The position numbers and the translations under genes were made by a program. Of a stretch of 44,044 bases of DNA, positions 14,149 to 42,203 are shown in pieces (within the stretch, counting starts at the first letter, position 1; every line of letters starts with the position of its first letter). Where the stretch lies: positions 1-44,044 of the forward strand of contig JBBTNS010000058.1 of the NCBI GenBank assembly GCA_038067655.1. Reading direction: 5' to 3'. This stretch comes from Nitrospirota bacterium (lineage in GTDB: Bacteria > Nitrospirota > Nitrospiria > SBBL01 > SBBA01). Under the pieces are notes generated by a model. It saw nothing but the letters and a program-made list of their open reading frames with translations. It ran no database searches and had not been told where the DNA came from.

Positions 14149-14172
14149 GGGCACCTATAGAAACCCGTCACG
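14149..14172. mobile_element. Solo end of the GGGCACCTCTA MITE family
   Basis: GGGCACCTATAGAAACCCGTCACG closely matches the element end GGGCACCTCTAAAAACCGTCACG. Confidence 0.6.
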
Positions 14173-14187
14173 ATAGGAGGGCGTGCC

Positions 14188-14391
14188 ATGGAATACACAG
14201 CGATGGAAGTCCAAAGTGTTTTAAGGAACGATGAGAACCTCTTTGTGAAGAAGAAAATCGATCGTGCCAAGGAGGATGCCACGTCAGAGAGGCGGGCAGT
14301 TTCCGTGGCCGATAGTATCAAAATTTCAAAAGAGGGTTTGGATAAGTTAATCAAGTTGCAGCGGATACAAGCGGCAAACACAGGGGAATAA
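14188..14391 (+). CDS. Small hypothetical protein (67 aa)
   Basis: AGGAGG RBS; charged sequence containing DSIKISKEG; lies within the sigma-54 operon. Confidence 0.65.
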   Translation: MEYTAMEVQSVLRNDENLFVKKKIDRAKEDATSERRAVSVADSIKISKEGLDKLIKLQRIQAANTGE

Positions 14392-23957: not shown

Positions 23958-26381
23958 CTAGACCTTTTCAATGACCAGTTCGTAATGGCTATCGGGGCAT
24001 TGTTCAAGTTTTAAAATTTTATGGCCTTCTGCTTGAACCGAACGGGGAACATTGTCTTTCGGCGCCCCATCATCAATAATGACCGCAAGCACCTGTCCCG
24101 CCTCCATTTCTTCGAGCTGTAATTTTGTCTTCACAAAATTCATCGGGCAAGCCACCCCTGACAGGTCTAGTCGCATATTAATATGATACGCTTCGTTTTT
24201 AGCTCGCCGATTAGTATTGGCAGGCTGTGGTTGAGATTGAAATCCACTTCCTGGTGCTAGCTTTTTCAGCTTCATACTGGCGTCCATTTGGTCGTACGCC
24301 TCTTGGCATTCTGCGAGAAAAAGATTAGACAAGTCTAGATGGGCCTCTAGGTCAACGACCGAGTCAAAATCGATCCACTGCCCAAGGGATTGCGTAAACG
24401 TTTCAAATCGCTCCGACACAATTCCCTGTTCCACGACCTTGTGCTGGAACTGTTTTAATATTTCATTATCGTCGGGAGAATCAACACCAAAAGGAATAAG
24501 CAGCGCGCGACAGGCCCGAAGAATACTGCTCTTTAGTGGATCAATGACCAAGTCCTCTCTTCCGCGGCCCACCTCCAATTGGGCGTCCGCAAGCGACTGC
24601 CGACTCGTTCGCAAAAGATTCTCGATCAGATCAATGACGCCTCCTGCGCATTCCCCCGGCCCCAGATCGTCCAGATGAAAGTCGCCTTCGGCCTTATAGT
24701 CTTTATAAGATTCCGGGGCCACATCTGGCATTGGAAGATTGGTAAAATCAGTTAATTGCGTTGCAATGGTATTGGCCCCATAACGTTTTATAAAATCATT
24801 AAAGCGCTCCCCGTTTTGATGATTTTCACGAAAAATACTGCTGATTTTCATAACGGCCTGTGGAATATTCTTTGCCGGTATCTTGATCGTTGGTTTTCCA
24901 AGGGCAGAGGAATCCGCGTTCACACCACCCCCTAAGTGTACCTGATAATGCGGCACCAGCTTTCCATTAATCTTTTTTGCTACGCCATGAAGACCAATTC
25001 CGGCAATATGATGCTGGGCGCAGGAATTGGGACAGCCGGAAATCCGAATACGGAGACCCGCAAGGTCGTCACTCTCTGTTTTAGCCTGTGCAAAGGCATC
25101 CGAGATAGCCGCACCAACACCCATTGAAGAGGTCAGCGCAAGCTGGCAACTATCGGCGCCCGGACAGGCAATCACATCCACGGCGGTCTCCGCGCCCGAT
25201 GCGGCAAGACCCAGTTTATTAAGCGCACGATAAAGATTGGGAAGGGATGACGGGTCAATACCAAACAGAACAAAATTTTGCTGATGCGTCGCTCGGAGCG
25301 CTTGTGGGGCAAATTGATCCACAATATCGGCCAATCCCCGAAGCGCCTCAGCCGTAATATCTCCCAACGGAAGCCGGACTTGAACTGCAACCTTTGATTT
25401 GTTTTTGGTCGGGAGAACATTCGTTTTTATCCACTCAGAAGGTACGGATGGGTATAACAATGCCTGCAGGCTTGATGATGCTTGTTCCATGCCGACCATC
25501 GGGAGGGCTCCGTTCGCTGCCCCTCGTAGGGGCGGATATGCCTTCTTTACTTCTTTGAAAATCGCGATCTCTTTGGCAACGGCTTCTTTAAATTTCGCCA
25601 TTCCCCATTTTTCAAGAATGAATTTCATCCGTGCCTTGCTGCGAGTTTTGCGATCCCCATTCGCATCAAAGATCTTGAGCATTGCCTCGCAGGTCGGCAA
25701 CACCTCTTCAAACGGAAGAAATTCCGAATAGAGCTTGGCCAGTTTGGGACTGGAGCCTAAGCCTCCTCCTGCATAGACGCGAAACCCATACTCAGTCGTT
25801 CCATTTTGGTTTCGAGACTCGGCAATAAAGCCGATGTCGTGAATGGCGGCCAGTCCGCATTCACTTTTGCATCCCGAAAAGGAGATTTTAAATTTTCGAG
25901 GCAGGTCCTGATTGATCGGGTTTCTTAAAAGGTGATAGGCGACCGTTTCCGACATCGGGGTAACATCAAAAAGTTCCGTAGGACAGGAGCCAGCCCAATG
26001 GCAGGAGGTGACATTGCGAACCGTGTTTCCGCAGGCCTCGCGCGAGGTGAGTCCTGCTTCGGCAAGACGGCGGAGAATCGTTGGGACATTCGAGAGCTTT
26101 ACAAAATGGAACTGAATATCCTGACGGGTCGTCACATGTCCTTTTCCCGTAGAATAGGTCTCGACAAGGTCGGCCAATGTCCGGAGCTTTTCGGCATTCA
26201 AAAGACCAGAGGGAATCTTCACCCGAACCATCTGAACGCCCTTTTGTCGTTGGCCGTAGATGCCCTGTTGAAGGCGAAATTTCTTGAATTTCTCCTCCGG
26301 GATTTCGTTGTTCAGAAGCCGTTTAATCTCTCGATCAAACGCTTTGATCTCTTTGACGACTTCTTCTGGGATTGTAACCAT
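23958..26381 (-). CDS. Siroheme sulfite/nitrite reductase with a C-terminal TusA-like domain
   Basis: RLQQGIYGQRQ, HVTTRQDIQ, ACGNTVRN, LPRKFK and CPGADSC...SGCPNSC motifs; C-terminal LDLSGVACPMNFVKTKL. Confidence 0.9.
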   Translation of the reverse strand: MVTIPEEVVKEIKAFDREIKRLLNNEIPEEKFKKFRLQQGIYGQRQKGVQMVRVKIPSGLLNAEKLRTLADLVETYSTGKGHVTTRQDIQFHFVKLSNVPTILRRLAEAGLTSREACGNTVRNVTSCHWAGSCPTELFDVTPMSETVAYHLLRNPINQDLPRKFKISFSGCKSECGLAAIHDIGFIAESRNQNGTTEYGFRVYAGGGLGSSPKLAKLYSEFLPFEEVLPTCEAMLKIFDANGDRKTRSKARMKFILEKWGMAKFKEAVAKEIAIFKEVKKAYPPLRGAANGALPMVGMEQASSSLQALLYPSVPSEWIKTNVLPTKNKSKVAVQVRLPLGDITAEALRGLADIVDQFAPQALRATHQQNFVLFGIDPSSLPNLYRALNKLGLAASGAETAVDVIACPGADSCQLALTSSMGVGAAISDAFAQAKTESDDLAGLRIRISGCPNSCAQHHIAGIGLHGVAKKINGKLVPHYQVHLGGGVNADSSALGKPTIKIPAKNIPQAVMKISSIFRENHQNGERFNDFIKRYGANTIATQLTDFTNLPMPDVAPESYKDYKAEGDFHLDDLGPGECAGGVIDLIENLLRTSRQSLADAQLEVGRGREDLVIDPLKSSILRACRALLIPFGVDSPDDNEILKQFQHKVVEQGIVSERFETFTQSLGQWIDFDSVVDLEAHLDLSNLFLAECQEAYDQMDASMKLKKLAPGSGFQSQPQPANTNRRAKNEAYHINMRLDLSGVACPMNFVKTKLQLEEMEAGQVLAVIIDDGAPKDNVPRSVQAEGHKILKLEQCPDSHYELVIEKV

Positions 26382-31659: not shown

Positions 31660-33162
31660 TTACTTCTTTTTCAAAACCACCCAGATCATAAAACCCATCA
31701 TGATGAGAAGGTTCCCGATTGCAAAGAAATCGCCATGGCGGGTGTAGATCGTTTTCCTCATTCCCAGTGAAAGCGAATGTAATAATGCCGCATCCTTAAA
31801 AAGAGGGCTCGTTTGTAAAATCTTGCCATGCGCATCAATAAACCCAGAAATGCCTGTATTGGCAGCGCGAGCAAACGGCACCCGATTTTCAATCGCACGG
31901 AAAACAACCATCGAGAAATGTTGATCGGGAGCCGCCGAATCTCCAAACCAGGCATCGTTCGTAATGGTCACCATCAAATTCGCACCGTTTTGTGCAAAAC
32001 GACGAACCACTTCGGGGAAGATCACCTCAAAGCAGATCGCCGTTCCGATCTTCGCAGACGACATCTCAAAGACTTTTGCTGTCTCACCGGGAATAAACTC
32101 ACCAATTCCCGTCACCATTTTATCCACGAAGAAAAGAAGCGATTTCAGCGGCACATACTCTCCAAACGGCACCAGATGGATTTTATCGTATCTTTCGGCT
32201 GAGCCTCCAGATAGAAGATATGCCGAATTTAAAAGTGAAATCTGCCCCAAAGGCGTTTCCAAAAAAGCAGGCGAGCCGAATAAAAGCGAAAAATTCCCCC
32301 TTCGCGAAAGTACGCCCAATCTTTCTTGGTACAAAGGTTCATTCTGAAAAAAAACAGGCAAGGCCGCCTCCGGCCAGACCACCAAATCGGCACGATTTGA
32401 AAAGGTGCGCGACAATCGTTCATATTTCGCAACAATGGTCTCGCGCAGATTCGGCGACCATTTTCCTGATTGATCAATATTCCCTTGAATCACTGCGACA
32501 GTAATGGGATCACCCCTTCCCATCGGCTGACTCAGACGATACGTTCCATATAAAAACGAGATGGCCAAAACGGAAAAAAGGATTGCAGTGGGGTAGATCG
32601 CTAATTGCCTTTTCTGCCATGCGGTTTGTGCTATTAAATAGAGGCTGACGTTGATCAAAATAATCATGAAGCTAACACCATACACCGATGTGATATCGGC
32701 AATCTGAATCAGAGATATATTGCGATATTGCGAATATCCCAATATATTCCATGGAAAACCGGTTAGAAGATGTCCTCGCAAATATTCTAATCCGGTCCAG
32801 AAAACTGGAGCCATCGCCCATGATAAATCGCTTTTAAAGAGCCGAAGCAGTCCTGTGAAAAATGCAACATAGAGCGAAAGATAAGCCGATAGAAGAAACA
32901 TGAGCGGGAAGCTGATGAATTTGGAAAGGCCTCCATACTGCTCCATGCTGATGGTGACCCACGAGAGGCTGCCTGCAAAGTAAACCATCCCTGCAATCCA
33001 CCCAAGCAGGAACGATTTTTTAGGGGTTTGTCCTTCAGAGGCATAAAAAAGAGGGATGACAGCGATAAAGGCAAGCCACGGAAAATTCCAACGTGGAAAT
33101 GACAGAGCCAACAGCATCCCGGAAAGGAGTGCGAGTGTAATTATTTTTTTAGAACATAACAT
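31660..33162 (-). CDS. lnt: Apolipoprotein N-acyltransferase
   Basis: GFPW, QGNI, WPEAA, YDKIHLVPFGEY, ICFE, TNDAWFG and RAANTG motifs. Confidence 0.96.
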   Translation of the reverse strand: MLCSKKIITLALLSGMLLALSFPRWNFPWLAFIAVIPLFYASEGQTPKKSFLLGWIAGMVYFAGSLSWVTISMEQYGGLSKFISFPLMFLLSAYLSLYVAFFTGLLRLFKSDLSWAMAPVFWTGLEYLRGHLLTGFPWNILGYSQYRNISLIQIADITSVYGVSFMIILINVSLYLIAQTAWQKRQLAIYPTAILFSVLAISFLYGTYRLSQPMGRGDPITVAVIQGNIDQSGKWSPNLRETIVAKYERLSRTFSNRADLVVWPEAALPVFFQNEPLYQERLGVLSRRGNFSLLFGSPAFLETPLGQISLLNSAYLLSGGSAERYDKIHLVPFGEYVPLKSLLFFVDKMVTGIGEFIPGETAKVFEMSSAKIGTAICFEVIFPEVVRRFAQNGANLMVTITNDAWFGDSAAPDQHFSMVVFRAIENRVPFARAANTGISGFIDAHGKILQTSPLFKDAALLHSLSLGMRKTIYTRHGDFFAIGNLLIMMGFMIWVVLKKK

Positions 33163-33368
33163 TGAATGGTCGTGCCCTCCTCAACAATCTGAAGCAGTTC
33201 ATGTCCGGAATTTTCACACCAAACCACCATATCTTTTTTAACACCGATATCATCGGAAAGCACTAAAAGAATCTGTCCTGCGATCATCTCTTTGATTTTC
33301 TTCGATGTTAAAATCACGGGCAACGGACAAAACAATCCGAGCGTATCTAGTGTTACATCCGAGGTCAT
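33141..33368 (-). CDS. tusA: TusA-family sulfur carrier
   Basis: LDTLGLFCPLP motif; directly downstream of the cysteine desulfurase. Confidence 0.88.
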   Translation of the reverse strand: MTSDVTLDTLGLFCPLPVILTSKKIKEMIAGQILLVLSDDIGVKKDMVVWCENSGHELLQIVEEGTTIQCYVLKK

Positions 33369-34561
33369 CGTGATTGGCTGCTCGCAGCGGACGCTCCGCC
33401 AGATAATTCGGAATAAATCGGAGAGATTTCTTGAAGTGACGAAACCACTTCGGGAAAGACCGAAAGCACGGTATCAATATCCTCGCGTGTTGTGTCTTTC
33501 CCCAAACTCATCACAATTGCTCCTTGCGCAATGTTGGCCGGATACCCTATCGCGGTGAGTGTCGGTGATATTTTAAGCGCGTCCGCACTGCAAGAGGAGC
33601 CTGCGGCCGCAATAATACCGCTTCGAGAAAGCGCGCGAATCAATGCCTCTCCATCTACATATTCCACGGCAAAACTTGCAATATGCGGCAAACGATATTG
33701 CCGGTCACCCGTCAGATGAATCCGATTGACCTTTTTAATCAACCCAGAAATAAGATGATCCCTTAAATTAGAAAGCCGTTTGTGTTCATGGGTTAGATTT
33801 TCTCTTGCCGCCTTTCCCGCAACGCCCATGCCAACGATGGCTGGCACATTTTCTGTTCCGGCTCGGCGGCCCCCTTCTTGAATCCCCCCGTCAATTAAGG
33901 GGAAAATGCGTGTGCCGCGCCGAAGATAAAGCGCCCCCACCCCTTTTGGGCCATAAAACTGCTGGGCCGAAAAACCCGCCAGATCAACCCCCAATGAATT
34001 AATATCAAATGGAATCACCCCAACCGTTGCCGCCGCATCGGTATGAAAGGGCACTCCTGAAGCATTCGCAATTTTCGCAATTTCTTGTATGGGTTGAATG
34101 GTCCCGATCTCATTATTCGCGTGGGCGATAGAAATCAATACCGTCTCTTTACAAATTGCGTTTTTAACATCGGCAGGATTGACGCGTCCCGTTTGATCAA
34201 CCGGCAGCCAGGTCACCTGATAGCCTTCTTGCTCCATGCGTTTGATCGGATGTGCAACGGAAAAATGTTCGATCACCGAGGTAATAATATGCCGCCCCCT
34301 TTTTTTATGGGAAGACAGGATTCCCTTGATGGCAAGATTATTTGCTTCAGAAGCTGAGGCGGTAAAAATGATTTCGCGCGGATCGGCACCAATGAGTTCG
34401 GCAATGGATTTTCGTGCCGTCTCGATAGCCGCTTTGGGCGCATCTCCGACCTCATGGCGGCTTTGCGGGTTGCCGAAAGATTCGTCCCAGAAGGGCATCA
34501 TCGCATCTTTGGCCGCTGTCAAAAGCGGTGTGGCGGCGATATGATCTAAATAGATGGGCAC
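33365..34561 (-). CDS. iscS: Cysteine desulfurase (IscS/NifS group I)
   Basis: YLDHIAATP, ANNEIGTIQ, RAGTENV and AGSSC motifs. The GTG start lies inside a MITE end. The PLP-lysine motif reads SAQQFYGPKG (see findings). Confidence 0.85.
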   Translation of the reverse strand: MPIYLDHIAATPLLTAAKDAMMPFWDESFGNPQSRHEVGDAPKAAIETARKSIAELIGADPREIIFTASASEANNLAIKGILSSHKKRGRHIITSVIEHFSVAHPIKRMEQEGYQVTWLPVDQTGRVNPADVKNAICKETVLISIAHANNEIGTIQPIQEIAKIANASGVPFHTDAAATVGVIPFDINSLGVDLAGFSAQQFYGPKGVGALYLRRGTRIFPLIDGGIQEGGRRAGTENVPAIVGMGVAGKAARENLTHEHKRLSNLRDHLISGLIKKVNRIHLTGDRQYRLPHIASFAVEYVDGEALIRALSRSGIIAAAGSSCSADALKISPTLTAIGYPANIAQGAIVMSLGKDTTREDIDTVLSVFPEVVSSLQEISPIYSELSGGASAASSQSR

Positions 34562-34697
34562 CTCTATAAACCTACTGCGCGGACAAACTGCTGTGTTGCA
34601 CGGTGCTCGGAATCCTCATGTACTAAACGTACACTACGGTTCCTGTGCGCCGTGCGCCTTGCATTTTGACCGCTCGTGACGGTTTTTAGAGGTGCCC
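34556..34697. mobile_element. 142-bp MITE with 16-bp terminal inverted repeats and a 4-bp AGAT target-site duplication
   Basis: GGGCACCTCTATAAAC ... GTTTTTAGAGGTGCCC; AGAT at 34552-34555 and 34698-34701; internal imperfect palindrome. Confidence 0.88.
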
Positions 34698-34706
34698 AGA
34701 TTTTTC

Positions 34707-35228
34707 TCATGCGAGAGCAGCGGAAGGGTTTTCTCTTTCTAAAACGCCGATATAGGGCAGATTCCGATATCGGTCTTTGTAATCTAATCCATATCCAACC
34801 ACAAACCGATCTGGTGCTGTGAAGCCAATATAATCAATATCTACCCCGACCACTCTGGCACTCGGTTTATCCAGCAGCGTGCAAAGCCGAAGCGATTTTG
34901 GATTTCTTGCCAATAAGGCCTTTTTTAAAAAAGAGCCGGTTGCGCCGGAGTCCACAATATCTTCTACGATGAGGACGTGCCGATCTGTAATATTCTCCGT
35001 AAGATCAGAAATCACTTTTTGTTTGGAGATGACAAGAAAGTCAACCTGTATTGAAAGGGAGACCGCGCGTGAAAGATCGGCAAAAAAAGCGTACGCGCCT
35101 CTTAATACGCCGACCATGAGCAATTCCTGATTGGCATAATCTTTTGAAATTTGCAAGCCCAGTTCAGCCACACGGCTTTTAATGGCGGCCTGTGTAAAAA
35201 TCACTTTTCCAAAAACACGATCTTCCAT
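34707..35228 (-). CDS. hpt: Hypoxanthine phosphoribosyltransferase
   Basis: GVLRGA..FFADL, VLIVEDIVDSG and FVVGYGLDY...RNLPYI motifs; loop II is shortened. Confidence 0.88.
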   Translation of the reverse strand: MEDRVFGKVIFTQAAIKSRVAELGLQISKDYANQELLMVGVLRGAYAFFADLSRAVSLSIQVDFLVISKQKVISDLTENITDRHVLIVEDIVDSGATGSFLKKALLARNPKSLRLCTLLDKPSARVVGVDIDYIGFTAPDRFVVGYGLDYKDRYRNLPYIGVLERENPSAALA

Positions 35229-35330: not shown

Positions 35331-37163
35331 TCAAACCATGGTCTTATCATTCAAGCCCCGCAGTAGGTTATGAGAGGTGCCCTTTTGCATCTTATCTTCT
35401 GGTGCCAACGGAGAGGTTTCTTCAGCGGGAGAAAGGAAACCGGCCTCCTTAAATCGAATTTTTAACTTTTCATTGTTAGGATCTAGCTTCAGCGAATGTG
35501 TCCATGCCGCTTTTGACTGCTCCTTCTGATTTTCTTTTAAGTAAACCTCTCCCAAATGCTCCAAAATCACTGGATCGTCCGGCGCAAGCGTCACCGCCTT
35601 TTCAAGAAGGAGCAGCGCCTCTTTCATCTTGCCTTGCTTATAATAGGCCCAGCCGAGACTGTCCATCACATAACCATCGTTAGGCTTTATGGTCAACGCA
35701 CGGGTCACTAAAGAGACGGCTTCAGCCAGGAAAATACCGCGATCGGCATAAGTATAGCCCAGGTAATTCAGCGCCATCACATGCTGTTCATCGAGTGAGA
35801 TGGCGCGTTTCATTTCTGAAACCAGATCGTCAAATTGGTTTAATTTGTCATAAACAACCCCCAGATGAAAATGGAAATCGGGATTATTGGGGGCAATTGC
35901 GATTCCCTTCAAAAGAGAATCGCGTGCTTCGGAAAATCGTTCCAATTCATACAACACCAAGGCGTTGAAGAGATAGGCCTCCTCTTTTTTTGGATCCATC
36001 GCAACTGCACGCTCTCCTTCTGCCAACGCCTCTGGAATCTTTTTTAATCGATAGAAGTAAATTCTTCCCAACCGAAGATGAATCTCGTAAGAATCTTCAT
36101 CTCGCAGCGGACGCTCCGCTTTTTGAAGCAATTCCTGATACGTTTGGATGGCCGCTTCATAATTTTCAACCCCTTCATAAAGAGACCCGAGATATGATTT
36201 TACATTAAAAGAGGGCGACTCGACCGCCATCATTTGTTTGAGCGCATCTAATGCCTTTTGATATTCTTTTTGTTGTGTCCATAGCAGTGATATTTTCAAC
36301 AAAATATCGGCATTTTTAGGGTCTTCAGCGGACAGTCTATTAAGAACGCCCATCGCTTCACCAAAAGACTTCCGCTCGGATAAGATGTAAGATAGCCTCA
36401 ATCCGGCCTCTTCATGTTCCATATTGTTTTGTTTAAGGATATGCAAGTAGATTTTTTCCGCTTCATCGCGTTTCCCTAAAAGCTCATAGAGAGAAGCCGC
36501 CGAAAGATGCGCTTGTAAAAAGGGGGGATAAAGAGCCGAAGCCTTCTGATAATGTTCAATTCCGTTTTCATATTTATTTTGGCTGGAATAGAGTTTCCCC
36601 AAGTAGTAATGAGCTACATGAGAGGAAGACGCCTCAATCAATCCTTTTTCTACGGTGGCAATTGCATCGCTGACCTTCTGCTCCTTGGCTAAAAATTCAG
36701 CCAAATTTAAATAGCCGTCAATCTCCTTGGGAGACTGTGCAATAATTTTCTCGTATGTTGCGACCACCTTTTCAAGGGCATCGGAAGCCGCATAAAGATC
36801 GGCCAAGAGATTCAATATTTCCTTATCATTTTGCTTGATTGTATTAGCCTTTTCGGCAAAGTCGACCGCTTTTTTTAGATCGCCAACGCGTGCGGCACAG
36901 ACAGCAATCCGTGTCATCAAAAGCGGGGAAACTTCATGACGCTCTGCTTTCTGATAGGCTTTTAACGCCTTCTCAAACTGTCCCGAAGCCTCATACTGTA
37001 GCCCTAACATAACCGAGTAGTACGCCTCGGGAGAAGGAAACGGCATTGATTTTAAATGGGCTGTGGGAGCCGAAACCGAAGGATTTGCGCTAAGTGTTTC
37101 GGATGCGGAACAAACGATCGGGAACAAAATTGCAAAAATGATCAGAAAGAGACGATGTTTCAT
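35331..37163 (-). CDS. Exported tetratricopeptide repeat protein
   Basis: Signal peptide, multiple TPRs, ALNYLGYTYAD and DSLGWAYY...EHLGEVY motifs. Confidence 0.88.
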   Translation of the reverse strand: MKHRLFLIIFAILFPIVCSASETLSANPSVSAPTAHLKSMPFPSPEAYYSVMLGLQYEASGQFEKALKAYQKAERHEVSPLLMTRIAVCAARVGDLKKAVDFAEKANTIKQNDKEILNLLADLYAASDALEKVVATYEKIIAQSPKEIDGYLNLAEFLAKEQKVSDAIATVEKGLIEASSSHVAHYYLGKLYSSQNKYENGIEHYQKASALYPPFLQAHLSAASLYELLGKRDEAEKIYLHILKQNNMEHEEAGLRLSYILSERKSFGEAMGVLNRLSAEDPKNADILLKISLLWTQQKEYQKALDALKQMMAVESPSFNVKSYLGSLYEGVENYEAAIQTYQELLQKAERPLRDEDSYEIHLRLGRIYFYRLKKIPEALAEGERAVAMDPKKEEAYLFNALVLYELERFSEARDSLLKGIAIAPNNPDFHFHLGVVYDKLNQFDDLVSEMKRAISLDEQHVMALNYLGYTYADRGIFLAEAVSLVTRALTIKPNDGYVMDSLGWAYYKQGKMKEALLLLEKAVTLAPDDPVILEHLGEVYLKENQKEQSKAAWTHSLKLDPNNEKLKIRFKEAGFLSPAEETSPLAPEDKMQKGTSHNLLRGLNDKTMV

Positions 37164-37185: not shown

Positions 37186-37211
37186 GTGCCCCTCTAAAAA
37201 CCGACTGCGCG
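37186..37211. mobile_element. Degenerate end of the same MITE family
   Basis: GTGCCCCTCTAAAAACCGACTGCGCG versus GGGCACCTCTATAAACCTACTGCGCG at 34556. Confidence 0.55.
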
Positions 37212-37287
37212 TTTTTTGAGAACCATGGTTTTATAGTGACACAGCACTTCAAACGGCCACGCGAAACATAACGCCGTACGCAACAGG

Positions 37288-37532: not shown

Positions 37533-37970
37533 TCAAACAAACCGGTCACGGCATTTCTTCAGCCTTTTGCAATTGTCCTCCTTAAACGGGCGATCTTGGG
37601 ATGGGACAATCGGATTGAGCATACAAGCCCGCAGGACTTCAAGGTGACTGATCGGCTTACCCCAAACGACCACCTGTTTATCTTCTGCATAGGGTGAAAG
37701 GGCCGCGTCAATATCTTTTAGAAGAATTCTCCCAGAGTGAAAATAATCACGATACATCTTGCTGGAAAGATATCCCTTGCCCTCCAGAAACCATTCGCCC
37801 AACCGCACCGCCTCATCAAAGTGGAGTCGTTCCAGACCATGCAGTGGATTGCGATAAACAAATGTTCGCATCGGAAAGTAAGGCGCGATGATCTCGCTGG
37901 CCAGGCAGATTACCCCCAAAAGGTGCATCTGTTCTGTTTCAGTTGTTGGCGTGTGTTCTGTTTTTCCCAT
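37533..37970 (-). pseudogene. dabA: N-terminal fragment of DabA/MpsB (DUF2309) inorganic carbon transporter subunit
   Basis: IAPYFPMRTFVYRNPLHGLE.L.F..A..GYL...YR.YF..GRI matches the DUF2309 N-terminus. Only 145 codons are present versus roughly 800-1100 aa for intact members, and there is no dabB in the window. Confidence 0.8.
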
Positions 37971-39375: not shown

Positions 39376-39417
39376 AAAAAAAGCCGACTCAAAACCTTTA
39401 TGGTTTCGAGTCGGCTT
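39376..39417 (-). terminator. Intrinsic terminator of leader copy 2
   Basis: AAGCCGACTCGAAACC/GGTTTTGAGTCGGCTT stem followed by a U-tract. Confidence 0.8.
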
Positions 39418-39421
39418 AAAA

Positions 39422-39467
39422 CCCAACCGATTCTGATTTCAGAATCCTTCAGGCGATTTTCCGATAT
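39422..39467 (-). ncRNA. Putative cis-regulatory leader RNA, copy 2
   Basis: 45/46 identical to 40991-41036 and followed by a terminator. Confidence 0.7.
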
Positions 39468-39472
39468 AGCTT

Positions 39473-39602
39473 GGGCACCCCTAAAACCGTCACGAGCGAC
39501 CCAAGTGCGAGGCGCACGGCTCAGCACAAACGGATAACTTGTTGATTTACAATCATAACCGTTTTCACTGAGCCTGTCGAAGTGCAGTTTTTAGAGGTGC
39601 CC
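39473..39602. mobile_element. 130-bp MITE variant with an internal REP-like segment and IHF consensus
   Basis: GGGCACCCCTAAAACCGTCACGAGCG ... GTTTTTAGAGGTGCCC; AATCAACAAGTTA on the minus strand at 39535-39547; no clear 4-bp duplication. Confidence 0.78.
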
Positions 39603-39603
39603 T

Positions 39604-39927
39604 TTATTGGTCTTGATCGTAATCGGGCCAGACCACATCAACATCCGAGATCATCATCACTCCCGCATAATCTTGGATCAAGTCTCTAACCTCCTCCGCG
39701 ATCCGTACTGCGGCATTCTCATCCACTAGTGTGATAATCATGGCGTTTGCATAAAGGTCGGACACCCCTCCCCCCCTTCGATATCCCCGGTGACCCCGCC
39801 CGGTGACGGACTCATGGACCGTGTAGCCGGATGCGCCTGCCTGATCGATAATCTTAAGGACTTGTTGCAGTTTCACCGCCTCGATGACGATCTCGACTTT
39901 CTTCATTCTTTTTGGATCGTAAGGCAT
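39604..39927 (-). CDS. sbtB: PII-like regulator SbtB
   Basis: MKKVEIVIE...GASGYTV...GRGHRG pattern; AAGGAGG RBS; directly after sbtA. Confidence 0.85.
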   Translation of the reverse strand: MPYDPKRMKKVEIVIEAVKLQQVLKIIDQAGASGYTVHESVTGRGHRGYRRGGGVSDLYANAMIITLVDENAAVRIAEEVRDLIQDYAGVMMISDVDVVWPDYDQDQ

Positions 39928-39940
39928 CGCTCCTCCTTGG

Positions 39941-40927
39941 TTAATGAATCCATTTTGCCAGAAAGAGATAGAGGGGTATCCCGATCGTGACATTGAACGG
40001 GAAAGTAATCCCGAGGGCAAGGGTCATCGAGTAGGAGGGATTCGCCTTCGGCAGGGCAACGTGCATGGCGGCGGGCACAGCGATATATGAGGCGCTTGCG
40101 CCAAGGATGGCAACGAGGAGTGTCCCCCCGATACTCATCCCCAGCAACTTGCCGGTCGCAAGGCCGATCGCCGCGCCAATCAGCGGCATCAGAATCCCAA
40201 AGCCGGTTAAGAAGAGGCCGACCTGACGGAAATCGGCAAAGCGGCGGGCGGCCTCGATCCCCATGTGAAGAAGGAAGAGGCAGAGTACTCCTTTAAATGG
40301 GTCGAAGAAGAAAGGGCCGACCGTCTCCGCCCCATGTTCACCGGTCACCGCCCCGATGATCAGGGCACCCACCAGGATGACGACGCTTCCATTCAATAGT
40401 GCCTCTCGGAGGACTTCTCCCGCCGGGGTACCACCTTCAGCCTTTCTTCCTGAAGGGTCAAAGAACGTCGCCAACAGCAGCCCAATGGCAATCGCAGGCG
40501 ATTCCATCACTGCCATCATCGCTATTGTGTAACCTTCAAATTCATATCCTTCTCGGGTCAGGAAAGCCGAAGCGGCTAGGAACGTGACCGCGCTGACCGA
40601 GCCGTAGTGCGCGGAGATCGCAGCCGCATCAACCACCGAGAGGCGACCCAGCCACCGCAACAGGGAAAAGGCGATCAACGGTAGAAAAAGGCCGAGGAAG
40701 CCGGCTGCCAGACAAGCCCAAATTACGCTTGCCGTCCACCCTTCGTGGGCCAACTCCATACCCCCTTTCAATCCAATCGAAGCCATCAAATAATAGGAGA
40801 TACCGCGCACCATCGCTTCAGGAAGATGAAGATCAGATTTCAGCACTGATGCAATCCATCCCAGCACAAAAAAGAGAATAATGGGAGAGAGAAGGTTATG
40901 CGTTGCCTGCTGAATAAACTCATTCAT
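39941..40927 (-). CDS. sbtA: Sodium-dependent bicarbonate transporter SbtA family
   Basis: KSDL.LP, IGLKGG, AHYGSVSAVTF, MESPAI, ASASYIAVPAA and LGITFPFN motifs. Confidence 0.93.
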   Translation of the reverse strand: MNEFIQQATHNLLSPIILFFVLGWIASVLKSDLHLPEAMVRGISYYLMASIGLKGGMELAHEGWTASVIWACLAAGFLGLFLPLIAFSLLRWLGRLSVVDAAAISAHYGSVSAVTFLAASAFLTREGYEFEGYTIAMMAVMESPAIAIGLLLATFFDPSGRKAEGGTPAGEVLREALLNGSVVILVGALIIGAVTGEHGAETVGPFFFDPFKGVLCLFLLHMGIEAARRFADFRQVGLFLTGFGILMPLIGAAIGLATGKLLGMSIGGTLLVAILGASASYIAVPAAMHVALPKANPSYSMTLALGITFPFNVTIGIPLYLFLAKWIH

Positions 40928-40945: not shown

Positions 40946-40986
40946 AAAAAAGGCCGACTCAACAAAGGTTGCTGTTGAGTCGGCCT
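40946..40986 (-). terminator. Intrinsic terminator (attenuator) in the sbtA leader
   Basis: Perfect 14-bp stem AGGCCGACTCAACA/TGTTGAGTCGGCCT plus a U-tract, ending 18 nt before the sbtA ATG. Confidence 0.85.
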
Positions 40987-40990
40987 ATTG

Positions 40991-41036
40991 CCCAACCGAT
41001 TCTGATTTCAGAATCCTTCAGGCGATCTTCCGATAT
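40991..41036 (-). ncRNA. Putative cis-regulatory leader RNA, copy 1 (sbtAB)
   Basis: AUAUCGGAAGAUCGCCUGAAG-GAUUCUG-AAAU-CAGAAUC-GGUUGGG, located between a promoter and a terminator. Confidence 0.72.
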
Positions 41037-41044
41037 GGTTTCAG

Positions 41045-41087
41045 AATACTACGCTACCTATTCGCTCCAAGTAAAGCCAAAAATCAT
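41045..41087 (-). promoter_or_regulatory. Candidate sigma-70 promoter, copy 1
   Basis: TTTACT-N18-TAGTAT; the block is repeated at 41796-41838. Confidence 0.6.
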
Positions 41088-41108
41088 TGTGAATGGAGTG
41101 TCTCTTAA

Positions 41109-41795: not shown

Positions 41796-41838
41796 AATAC
41801 TACGCGATCTACTCGCTCCAAGTAAATCCAAAACTCAT
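41796..41838 (-). promoter_or_regulatory. Candidate sigma-70 promoter, copy 2
   Basis: TTTTGGATTTACTTGGAGCGAGTAGATCGCGTAGTATT, near-identical to copy 1. Confidence 0.6.
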
Positions 41839-42203
41839 CGGGAGAAATGATCCTCAAGGTTTTCGTTCAACGTAAAAATAATCATTCGTTCCCCGGTCTT
41901 CGTGCTGATATCAGTGTGAAGGCTAACCACTTTGAGGCCAGTGACCTTCTCAATGGCTTCTTTGATCAACGATTTGCCCTGCTCTAACAAATTGGAACGT
42001 ATTTTTTTAATCAGGTTGATTCCCTCCGAATTTTTGGCCAGCTGTTGCTCCGCCGGTGTCAGCACCCCCTTCAGCCGCACCAAAACCATATCCTCAATGA
42101 CGAATGCCTTTGTTTCTTGTGGGCCTCGGCCCATGTAGTCTTTTTCAAACTGAATTAAGGCATTGCTAATTTCCGCCTCGATCTGGCCTTTTGTCCTTTT
42201 CAT
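41835..42203 (-). CDS. DUF2294 (MpsC/YbcI family) protein
   Basis: TKGQIEAEIS...MGRGP, LKGVLTPAE and SLHTDISTKTGER motifs. Confidence 0.88.
   Translation of the reverse strand: MKRTKGQIEAEISNALIQFEKDYMGRGPQETKAFVIEDMVLVRLKGVLTPAEQQLAKNSEGINLIKKIRSNLLEQGKSLIKEAIEKVTGLKVVSLHTDISTKTGERMIIFTLNENLEDHFSR

Follow-up and report, generated by a model that had tools for sequence, protein, structure and literature searches.

A MITE (miniature inverted-repeat transposable element) of an IS5-type family is inserted past the tenth base of a NifS/IscS-like gene in a Nitrospirota bacterium, and according to our best reading, to which we give a probability of about 0.6, the gene is rescued by a termination-reinitiation relay that would start its protein at a GTG codon located in the terminal repeat of the element itself. 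The stretch of DNA analyzed here (44,044 nt, referred to as the window) is a whole metagenome contig (JBBTNS010000058.1), and the genes around the insertion are all encoded on its minus strand (Table 1). Upstream of the interrupted gene lies hpt, the gene for hypoxanthine phosphoribosyltransferase, whose open reading frame (ORF) ends with ...GCATGA, the TGA stop occupying positions 34707-34709, so that the ATG originally used by the NifS/IscS-like gene overlaps the hpt stop as ATGA. After this old ATG the sequence continues with AGA AAA ATC T and then enters the element, which is bounded by the 17-nt terminal inverted repeats GGGCACCTCTAAAAACC and GGGCACCTCTATAAACC (1 mismatch in 17), has an inverted repeat that reaches arms of 25 nt at 84% identity, and is flanked by a perfect 4-bp duplication reading ATCT on both sides on the minus strand. 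Scripted excision of the element together with one copy of the duplication yielded a 399-codon ORF starting MRKIYLDHIAAT. The element and one duplication copy amount to 146 nt, which is 2 modulo 3; since this is not a multiple of three, the reading frame is shifted and the protein can no longer be read from the original start. From the old ATG, translation would now proceed for 48 codons to a TAG at 34564-34566, which is followed by AG and then by a GTG at 34559-34561, giving a stop-to-start spacing of +2 nt, with both TAG and GTG lying within the terminal repeat. This GTG is the first in-frame start codon past the preceding stop and opens an ORF of 398 codons, MPIYLDH..., and with the original frame broken, the new start is the one way left to make the protein. 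All of this agrees with the original prediction, which had been made from the sequence alone and turned out to be correct in every detail of its sequence description: the return of MRKIYLDH after removal of the element and one AGAT copy, the overlap of the old ATG with the hpt stop, the frame shift by 146 nt, and the 48 codons ending 2 nt ahead of the in-frame GTG. The GTG start has also been called in a public gene catalogue (P0001), as an automatic prediction only. The product of the 48-codon ORF has no Pfam match, and no longer protein containing this 48-residue peptide turned up in a protein search.

In the relay that we propose, the NifS/IscS-like gene was originally coupled to hpt by the ATGA overlap, and ribosomes ending hpt on a presumably common transcript would still restart at the old ATG. 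They would then translate the 48-codon ORF along the full element and melt its long hairpin on the way, terminate at the TAG of the terminal repeat and re-initiate 2 nt further on at the in-frame GTG of the same repeat. The protein made in this way would begin with M-P instead of M-R-K and would keep everything from the IYLDH motif onward. The relay is favored by the spacing of +2 nt, by the old ATG with its coupling to hpt, and by an ORF that runs through the whole hairpin. In experiments with three gene pairs of Escherichia coli, a distance of 2 nt reduced re-initiation by only 5, 20 and 70%, while a distance of 38 nt nearly abolished it, and the final 15 nt of the upstream gene were sufficient; a stop-to-start distance between -8 and +10 nt is treated there as predictive of coupling (PMC10666635). 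The arrangement also depends on how the element landed. Among the six combinations of orientation and phase there is a single one in which the incoming frame arrives at the TAG of the repeat, and the same phase places the GTG in frame, which we regard as mild evidence for selection.

The predicted structure of the RNA indicates why a relay would be needed at this site. For a stretch of 201 nt that includes the element, the predicted RNA fold has -81.2 kcal/mol compared to -52.9 ± 4.2 kcal/mol for shuffled sequences (z = -6.75), and none of 200 shuffles was as stable. The GTG sits in the base of the predicted stem, and no Shine-Dalgarno (SD)-like 4-mer occurs at -20 to -4 of this codon; locked in the hairpin and lacking such a site, the GTG would need ribosomes arriving from upstream. 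A simple promoter and terminator scan found no promoter-like site and no terminator on the minus strand in the element. Keeping the hairpin open would moreover matter beyond the interrupted gene, because tusA, lnt, a nuclease-domain gene, leuS, lptE and holA follow closely on the same strand, tightly packed with overlaps of -1, -4 and +1.

The reconstructed start is well supported at the protein level by a comparison with 119 listed homologues, the closest relatives of the window protein, which are mostly from Nitrospirota and of which the best is 82% identical. In 84 of the 119 the motif [IV]Y[LF]D is preceded by M-x-x (53 of these 84 with K or R at position 2, and seven starting with MRK), whereas M-x precedes it in 2/119 and M alone in 6/119. 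MRKIYLDH thus represents the modal N-terminus of the relatives, as had been assumed when it was called typical of IscS, and the present MPIYLDH falls within natural variation, given the eight homologues with M-x or M alone. Position 1 of the Pfam profile Aminotran_5 aligns to residue 3 of the GTG-started protein. An indirect clue to synteny comes from the two closest relatives, in which homologues of Hpt and of the desulfurase-like protein occur on contigs of equal size (53,869 and 14,634 nt). A third coincidence of contig size, at 1,468 nt, was discarded because a contig of this length is too short for both genes. The ending A-[IL]-A is found in 4/5 Hpt sequences (that of the window and three of four relatives), which is consistent with a conserved GCA-TGA overlap without proving it.

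The element is a MITE of an IS5-type family, as evidenced by its terminal repeats, its target duplication, repeats of the same type in the window and in related genomes, and ends that are common with insertion sequences (ISs) of the IS5 family; its earlier identification as a MITE was therefore borne out. Within the window the terminal motif occurs seven times when up to three mismatches are allowed, compared to 0.16 expected, and seven was reached in 0/100 shuffles. A scan of genome contigs with the 17-nt motif returned at least 122 loci, from which the contig of the window is itself absent and for 80 of which 2-kb flanks were obtained. According to a hand tally of the record titles among the matches listed, these belong to Nitrospirota (19), Nitrospinota (4), Campylobacterota (23), Clostridia and relatives (24), Bacteroidota (15), Spirochaetota (13), Proteobacteria (17) and others (7), so that the repeat is common to at least seven phylum-level groups. 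At least eight loci, all from Troglogloeales or other Nitrospirota metagenome-assembled genomes (MAGs), are 79-90% identical to the window element beyond the repeat; L011 aligns over 142 nt and L084 over 145 nt, while L077, L039, L079, L075, L023 and L004 match in part. The listed loci and the window together contain at least 56 complete small elements of 50-290 nt with the repeat at both ends. Identical 4-bp flanks are present in 30/56 of them, as opposed to 0/56 for the next four bases outward, which served as control, and the duplications are AT-rich, with TTAA appearing seven times.

The same 17-nt ends bound elements of 1208-1303 bp in Sulfurimonas (L015), Pseudomonas bohemica (L017) and an alphaproteobacterial MAG (L052), i.e., IS5-family ISs in three classes. 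Each of the three encodes a DDE_Tnp_1/DUF772 protein that scores 259-265 bits with NCBIfam NF033581 (cut-off 140), and a tblastn search of plasmids with one such transposase matched genes annotated as IS5-family transposase. A matching transposase was absent from the 45 ORFs scanned in the window, which covers this contig only. A blastn search of plasmids with the element gave one unannotated match of 51 nt at 86% identity in a Yersinia plasmid, which is uninformative, and at Rfam gathering scores only a tRNA was detected in the window and nothing at the element. In other assemblies the repeats of the family are often situated at contig ends.

In many respects the element resembles known IS5-derived MITEs, which are likewise small and present in many copies, with 17-nt terminal repeats, a 4-bp AT-rich duplication and an RNA that forms a hairpin. 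IS5-related MITEs are among those included in a census, in which approximately 90% of conserved MITEs are reported as intergenic (PMC11602168). In contrast to those known elements, the repeat described here spans at least seven phylum-level groups, and the window contains no transposase of this type. The conservation of the 17-nt end across phyla is, judging from these sequences, unusually wide for an IS end. A full-text search of the open-access literature with a 15-nt stretch did not find the terminal sequence of the element in print.

Several observations weigh against use of the GTG. The only SD-like sequence at this codon, GAGGTG, includes the start codon and thus cannot serve as its SD, and GTG is a weaker start than ATG. 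An intact ORF is equally expected after a recent insertion, and population polymorphism is not visible from a metagenome-assembled contig. When five window proteins were compared by tblastn with the at least 122 loci, no hpt or desulfurase junction was found that could have served as an orthologous site, whether empty or filled. The window protein deviates at three of 95 near-invariant columns (L to M, A to G and R to Q; columns at least 95% conserved), which is the highest number among 25 sequences, the other 24 relatives deviating at 0-2. Such a number appears to be no clear sign of decay and would fit a working gene or a recent insertion, but it leaves room for a slight relaxation of constraint. 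Start donation as a trait of the family, finally, had to be rejected. For this comparison 143 outward-facing element ends with at least 300 nt of flank, including the one that carries the GTG of the window, were available among the matches listed. The GTG frame stays open for at least 80 codons past the end in 10 cases, compared to 15 and 21 cases for the two alternative frames. Apart from the window, nine GTG-frame cases remain: in four, an in-frame ATG located 27-33 nt downstream is apparently the native start, and five bear no resemblance to the arrangement in the window. The original prediction had proposed to look for other genes starting at the GTG of the repeat, and 0 of the other 142 ends has one. 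Start donation is accordingly an accident of one insertion and not a property of the repeat family.

The alternative that deserves most attention, although we consider it unlikely, is that the insertion inactivated or strongly silenced the gene, with hardly any productive initiation at the GTG, and that the ORF is intact only owing to a recent insertion or a minority allele, the protein being dispensable or redundant. This reading is supported by the frame shift as such and by the GTG, which is enclosed in a very stable hairpin and has no usable SD. A family without the lysine that binds pyridoxal phosphate (PLP) may not be an essential desulfurase; the number of deviations at near-invariant columns and the lack of other start donation among the 143 ends point in the same direction. 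However, the configuration observed is the sole one of six that combines an in-frame start with a stop 2 nt before it, which would be expected under selection and otherwise has a 1-in-6 chance. In addition, the ORF is full-length and has kept the loop cysteine and all but three of the 95 near-invariant residues, and conservation across Nitrospirota argues that the family matters.

If the gene is expressed, the GTG might still be used without re-initiation. The hairpin would in this case be cut by a double-strand-specific RNase, or breathe, and translation would start de novo on an mRNA with a short leader, uncoupled from hpt. A long, nearly perfect RNA duplex is the type of substrate that RNase III recognizes, and Correia elements have been reported to bind RNase III and to be cleaved or protected (PMC2649163). 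SD use also seems low in this genome, with an SD-like 4-mer ahead of 15/45 of the longest ORFs of the window in a crude count. Processing is nevertheless an assumption, while the +2 nt spacing fits re-initiation without an extra one, and we regard this route as improbable. Very improbable, in our estimate, is a start further downstream, at the in-frame TTG of codon 14 or the ATG ATG of codons 21-22, which would produce an N-terminally truncated protein. Homologues P0062, P0086, P0088 and P0091 are indeed annotated from the equivalent of M21/M22, but entries as short as these more probably stem from truncated gene calls, and a start at such codons would remove the segment IYLDHIAATP, which nearly all homologues conserve and which the Pfam profile covers from position 1. 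An assembly artefact, in which the repeat was misplaced in the metagenome assembly, is hardly to be expected. The window is a whole metagenome contig and the repeats of the family are frequent at contig ends elsewhere; a mis-join, however, would not give a perfect 4-bp duplication or an excision product that is a full-length ORF with a typical start, and the identical protein is present on two contigs.

A more far-reaching interpretation would regard the conserved 17-nt IS5-type end as a built-in stop-and-restart cassette (TAG, 2 nt, and GTG within GAGGTG) that lets MITEs land in operons or in the 5' ends of genes without abolishing downstream translation, with protein synthesis at the present locus hanging on a relay ORF that melts a hairpin of approximately -80 kcal/mol. 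We consider this idea decidedly doubtful; if true, the cassette would constitute a new, element-borne layer of translational control. Among the matches listed, GAGGTG was not enriched as a putative SD for starts located 2-8 nt past an element end (4 cases over 7 offsets compared to 38 at offsets 14-60). In L083 and L114, and also in L059 and L082, an ATG or GTG opening a long ORF is found 2-8 nt past the element end, with GAGGTG at SD distance.

Over its full length the protein encoded by the interrupted gene has the class-V aminotransferase fold, scoring 243.5 bits with Pfam Aminotran_5 (positions 1-370 of the 371 in the profile), and among the structures of the PDB it matches cysteine desulfurases with E values down to 1.9e-120. 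With the NCBIfam equivalog models it scored below every cut-off, reaching 453 for NifS (cut-off 530.75) and 373.6 and 369.3 for the two IscS models (cut-offs 548 and 643.2). At the column of the PLP-binding lysine the window protein reads FSAQQFYGPKG, compared to FTAHKMYGPKG in chain 9wfe_A, and lysine occurs there in 0/120 family members (the window protein and its 119 listed relatives, which have Q-Q or similar), while the cysteine of the catalytic loop is kept (GSSCSA, aligned to GSACVS of 9wfe_A). Since the protein lies below the equivalog cut-offs and lacks the PLP lysine, both labels attached to the locus in the original prediction were loose: the gene had been named iscS, which holds for the fold and the loop cysteine only, and the element had been described as a structured RNA in a housekeeping operon, of which the structured RNA stands, given the strength of the fold, while "housekeeping" claims too much.

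Judging from the alignments, the window protein and its relatives (33365-34561 on the minus strand, and P0002-P0120) look like a conserved, lysine-less IscS-like family that is mostly found in Nitrospirota and paired with TusA. A comparable case is IscS of Archaeoglobus fulgidus, which likewise combines the IscS fold with a replacement of the essential lysine, and whose chains 4eb5 and 4r5f are among the structure matches of the window protein. The archaeal protein is reported as devoid of desulfurase activity and is described as offering a cysteine ligand instead (PMC7585200). The two differ in the replacement, which is Q-Q for H-K in the window protein and aspartate in A. fulgidus IscS, and in that the partner gene here is tusA; moreover, the Nitrospirota family, unlike A. 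fulgidus IscS, is known here from sequences alone. An 807-residue protein encoded at 23958-26381 (minus strand), on the same strand as the desulfurase-like/tusA pair and downstream of it, combines two nitrite/sulfite reductase modules with a C-terminal TusA domain.

Dispersed repeats that supply the start codon of an adjacent frame have been described before, as in Neisseria REP2 and pneumococcal BOX elements. Start codons of expressed ORFs are contained in the boxC module (PMC3049150), and repeats that are joined to an ORF at its 5' or 3' end or carry a start are reported in PMC3184786 and PMC3049150. Unlike in these systems, the GTG found here lies in the terminal repeat of a transposon that has no promoter-like site on the strand concerned, an SD at working distance is missing, the element replaces the start of an existing conserved gene instead of heading a new ORF, and the case is a single one among the 143 ends compared. 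The contribution of codons by a palindromic mobile repeat within a coding gene is likewise known from Rickettsia palindromic elements (RPEs), for which in-frame intragenic copies are documented (PMC10969869), and from repeat-ORF fusions (PMC3184786). RPEs, however, insert in frame and are translated within the host protein, while the 146 nt added here do not keep the frame, a separate peptide of 48 residues would be made, and the gene receives no more than two codons (GTG CCC). With translational coupling at close gene pairs the locus has in common that both frames lie on one strand, that stop and start are 2 nt apart and that an ATGA overlap existed originally. It differs from known coupling in that the upstream "gene" is an accidental ORF of transposon sequence and in the two-step relay from hpt to this ORF and from there to the gene, which is deduced from sequence. 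Our searches of the open-access literature yielded no account of a transposon whose terminal repeat provides a relay ORF with its stop and also the disrupted gene with its start.

Table 1. Coordinates of the interrupted locus and of further copies and remnants of the element family in the window
Feature	Position	Strand	Basis or remark
hpt, hypoxanthine phosphoribosyltransferase	34707-35228	-	ORF; Pfam Pribosyltran; NCBIfam TIGR01203 175.7 bits (cut-off 150)
Ancestral ATG of the desulfurase-like gene, now start of the 48-codon ORF	34708-34710	-	ATGA overlap with the hpt TGA
Target-site duplication, upstream copy, ATCT (minus)/AGAT (plus)	34698-34701	-	
MITE, 142 nt, non-autonomous, IS5-type ends, one long imperfect hairpin	34556-34697	-	inverted repeat, fold, family evidence
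Terminal inverted repeat, mRNA 5' side, GGGCACCTCTAAAAACC	34681-34697	-	motif search, 0 mismatches
Terminal inverted repeat, mRNA 3' side; its minus-strand reading includes TAG and GTG	34556-34572	+	motif search
48-codon ORF made by the insertion; it opens at the old ATG, spans the complete element and closes with the terminal-repeat TAG	34564-34710	-	
Target-site duplication, downstream copy; supplies codon 3 and one further base (the first of codon 4) in the GTG-started ORF	34552-34555	-	
NifS/IscS-like class-V aminotransferase-fold ORF from GTG, 398 codons, MPIYLDH...	33365-34561	-	
TusA-family sulfur carrier gene	33141-33368	-	4-nt overlap with the stop of the desulfurase-like gene
Second family copy, 130 nt	39473-39602	+	motif search, sequence comparison
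Remnant of one element end in the 3' end of the TPR gene, encoding ..GTSHNLLRG..	35366-35382	-	
Degenerate mini-copy, approximately 60 nt, beginning 23 nt upstream of the TPR gene start (37163)	37186-37245	+	
Solo remnant of the end type found at the mRNA 5' end of the first copy, just upstream of a small ORF (ATG at 14190)	14149-14175	+	

Further traces of the element family are distributed over the window. The second copy has in common with the first approximately 55 nt at one end and, at the opposite end, the terminal repeat. It has no matching 4-bp flanks and lies at a distance of 1 nt from the stop codon (TAA) of a P-II-like gene (39604-40020); the missing flanks and an interior unlike that of the first copy suggest that it is a recombinant or rearranged copy. 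The P-II-like gene adjoins a gene for an SbtA-type bicarbonate transporter. Between 35331 and 35400 the last approximately 16 codons of a 610-residue TPR protein run into the element-end remnant (..KGTSHNLLRG..), and the element family thus seems to have remodelled the C-terminus and the stop of this gene. Two pairs of non-coding direct repeats around the sbtA and P-II-like genes (39401-39472 and 40970-41041, 72 nt at 86%; 41045-41092 and 41796-41843, 48 nt at 85%) are unrelated to the MITE, and one member directly adjoins its second copy. An ORF of 145 residues at 37533-37970 (minus strand) has a match to the DabA profile that is limited to positions 4-71 out of 747 and is probably a gene fragment of this inorganic-carbon transporter subunit.

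If the GTG is used, the locus would be a clean natural example of a transposon end that repairs the translational damage of its own insertion, and of a transposon-made relay ORF placed between two coupled genes. It bears on the persistence of MITEs in tightly packed operons beside essential genes such as lnt, leuS, lptE and holA, and since gene callers accept a GTG silently, insertions of this kind are invisible in annotation. The 17-nt IS5-type end that crosses phyla and the TusA-paired, lysine-less Nitrospirota family may in turn matter more than the single locus at which both were encountered.

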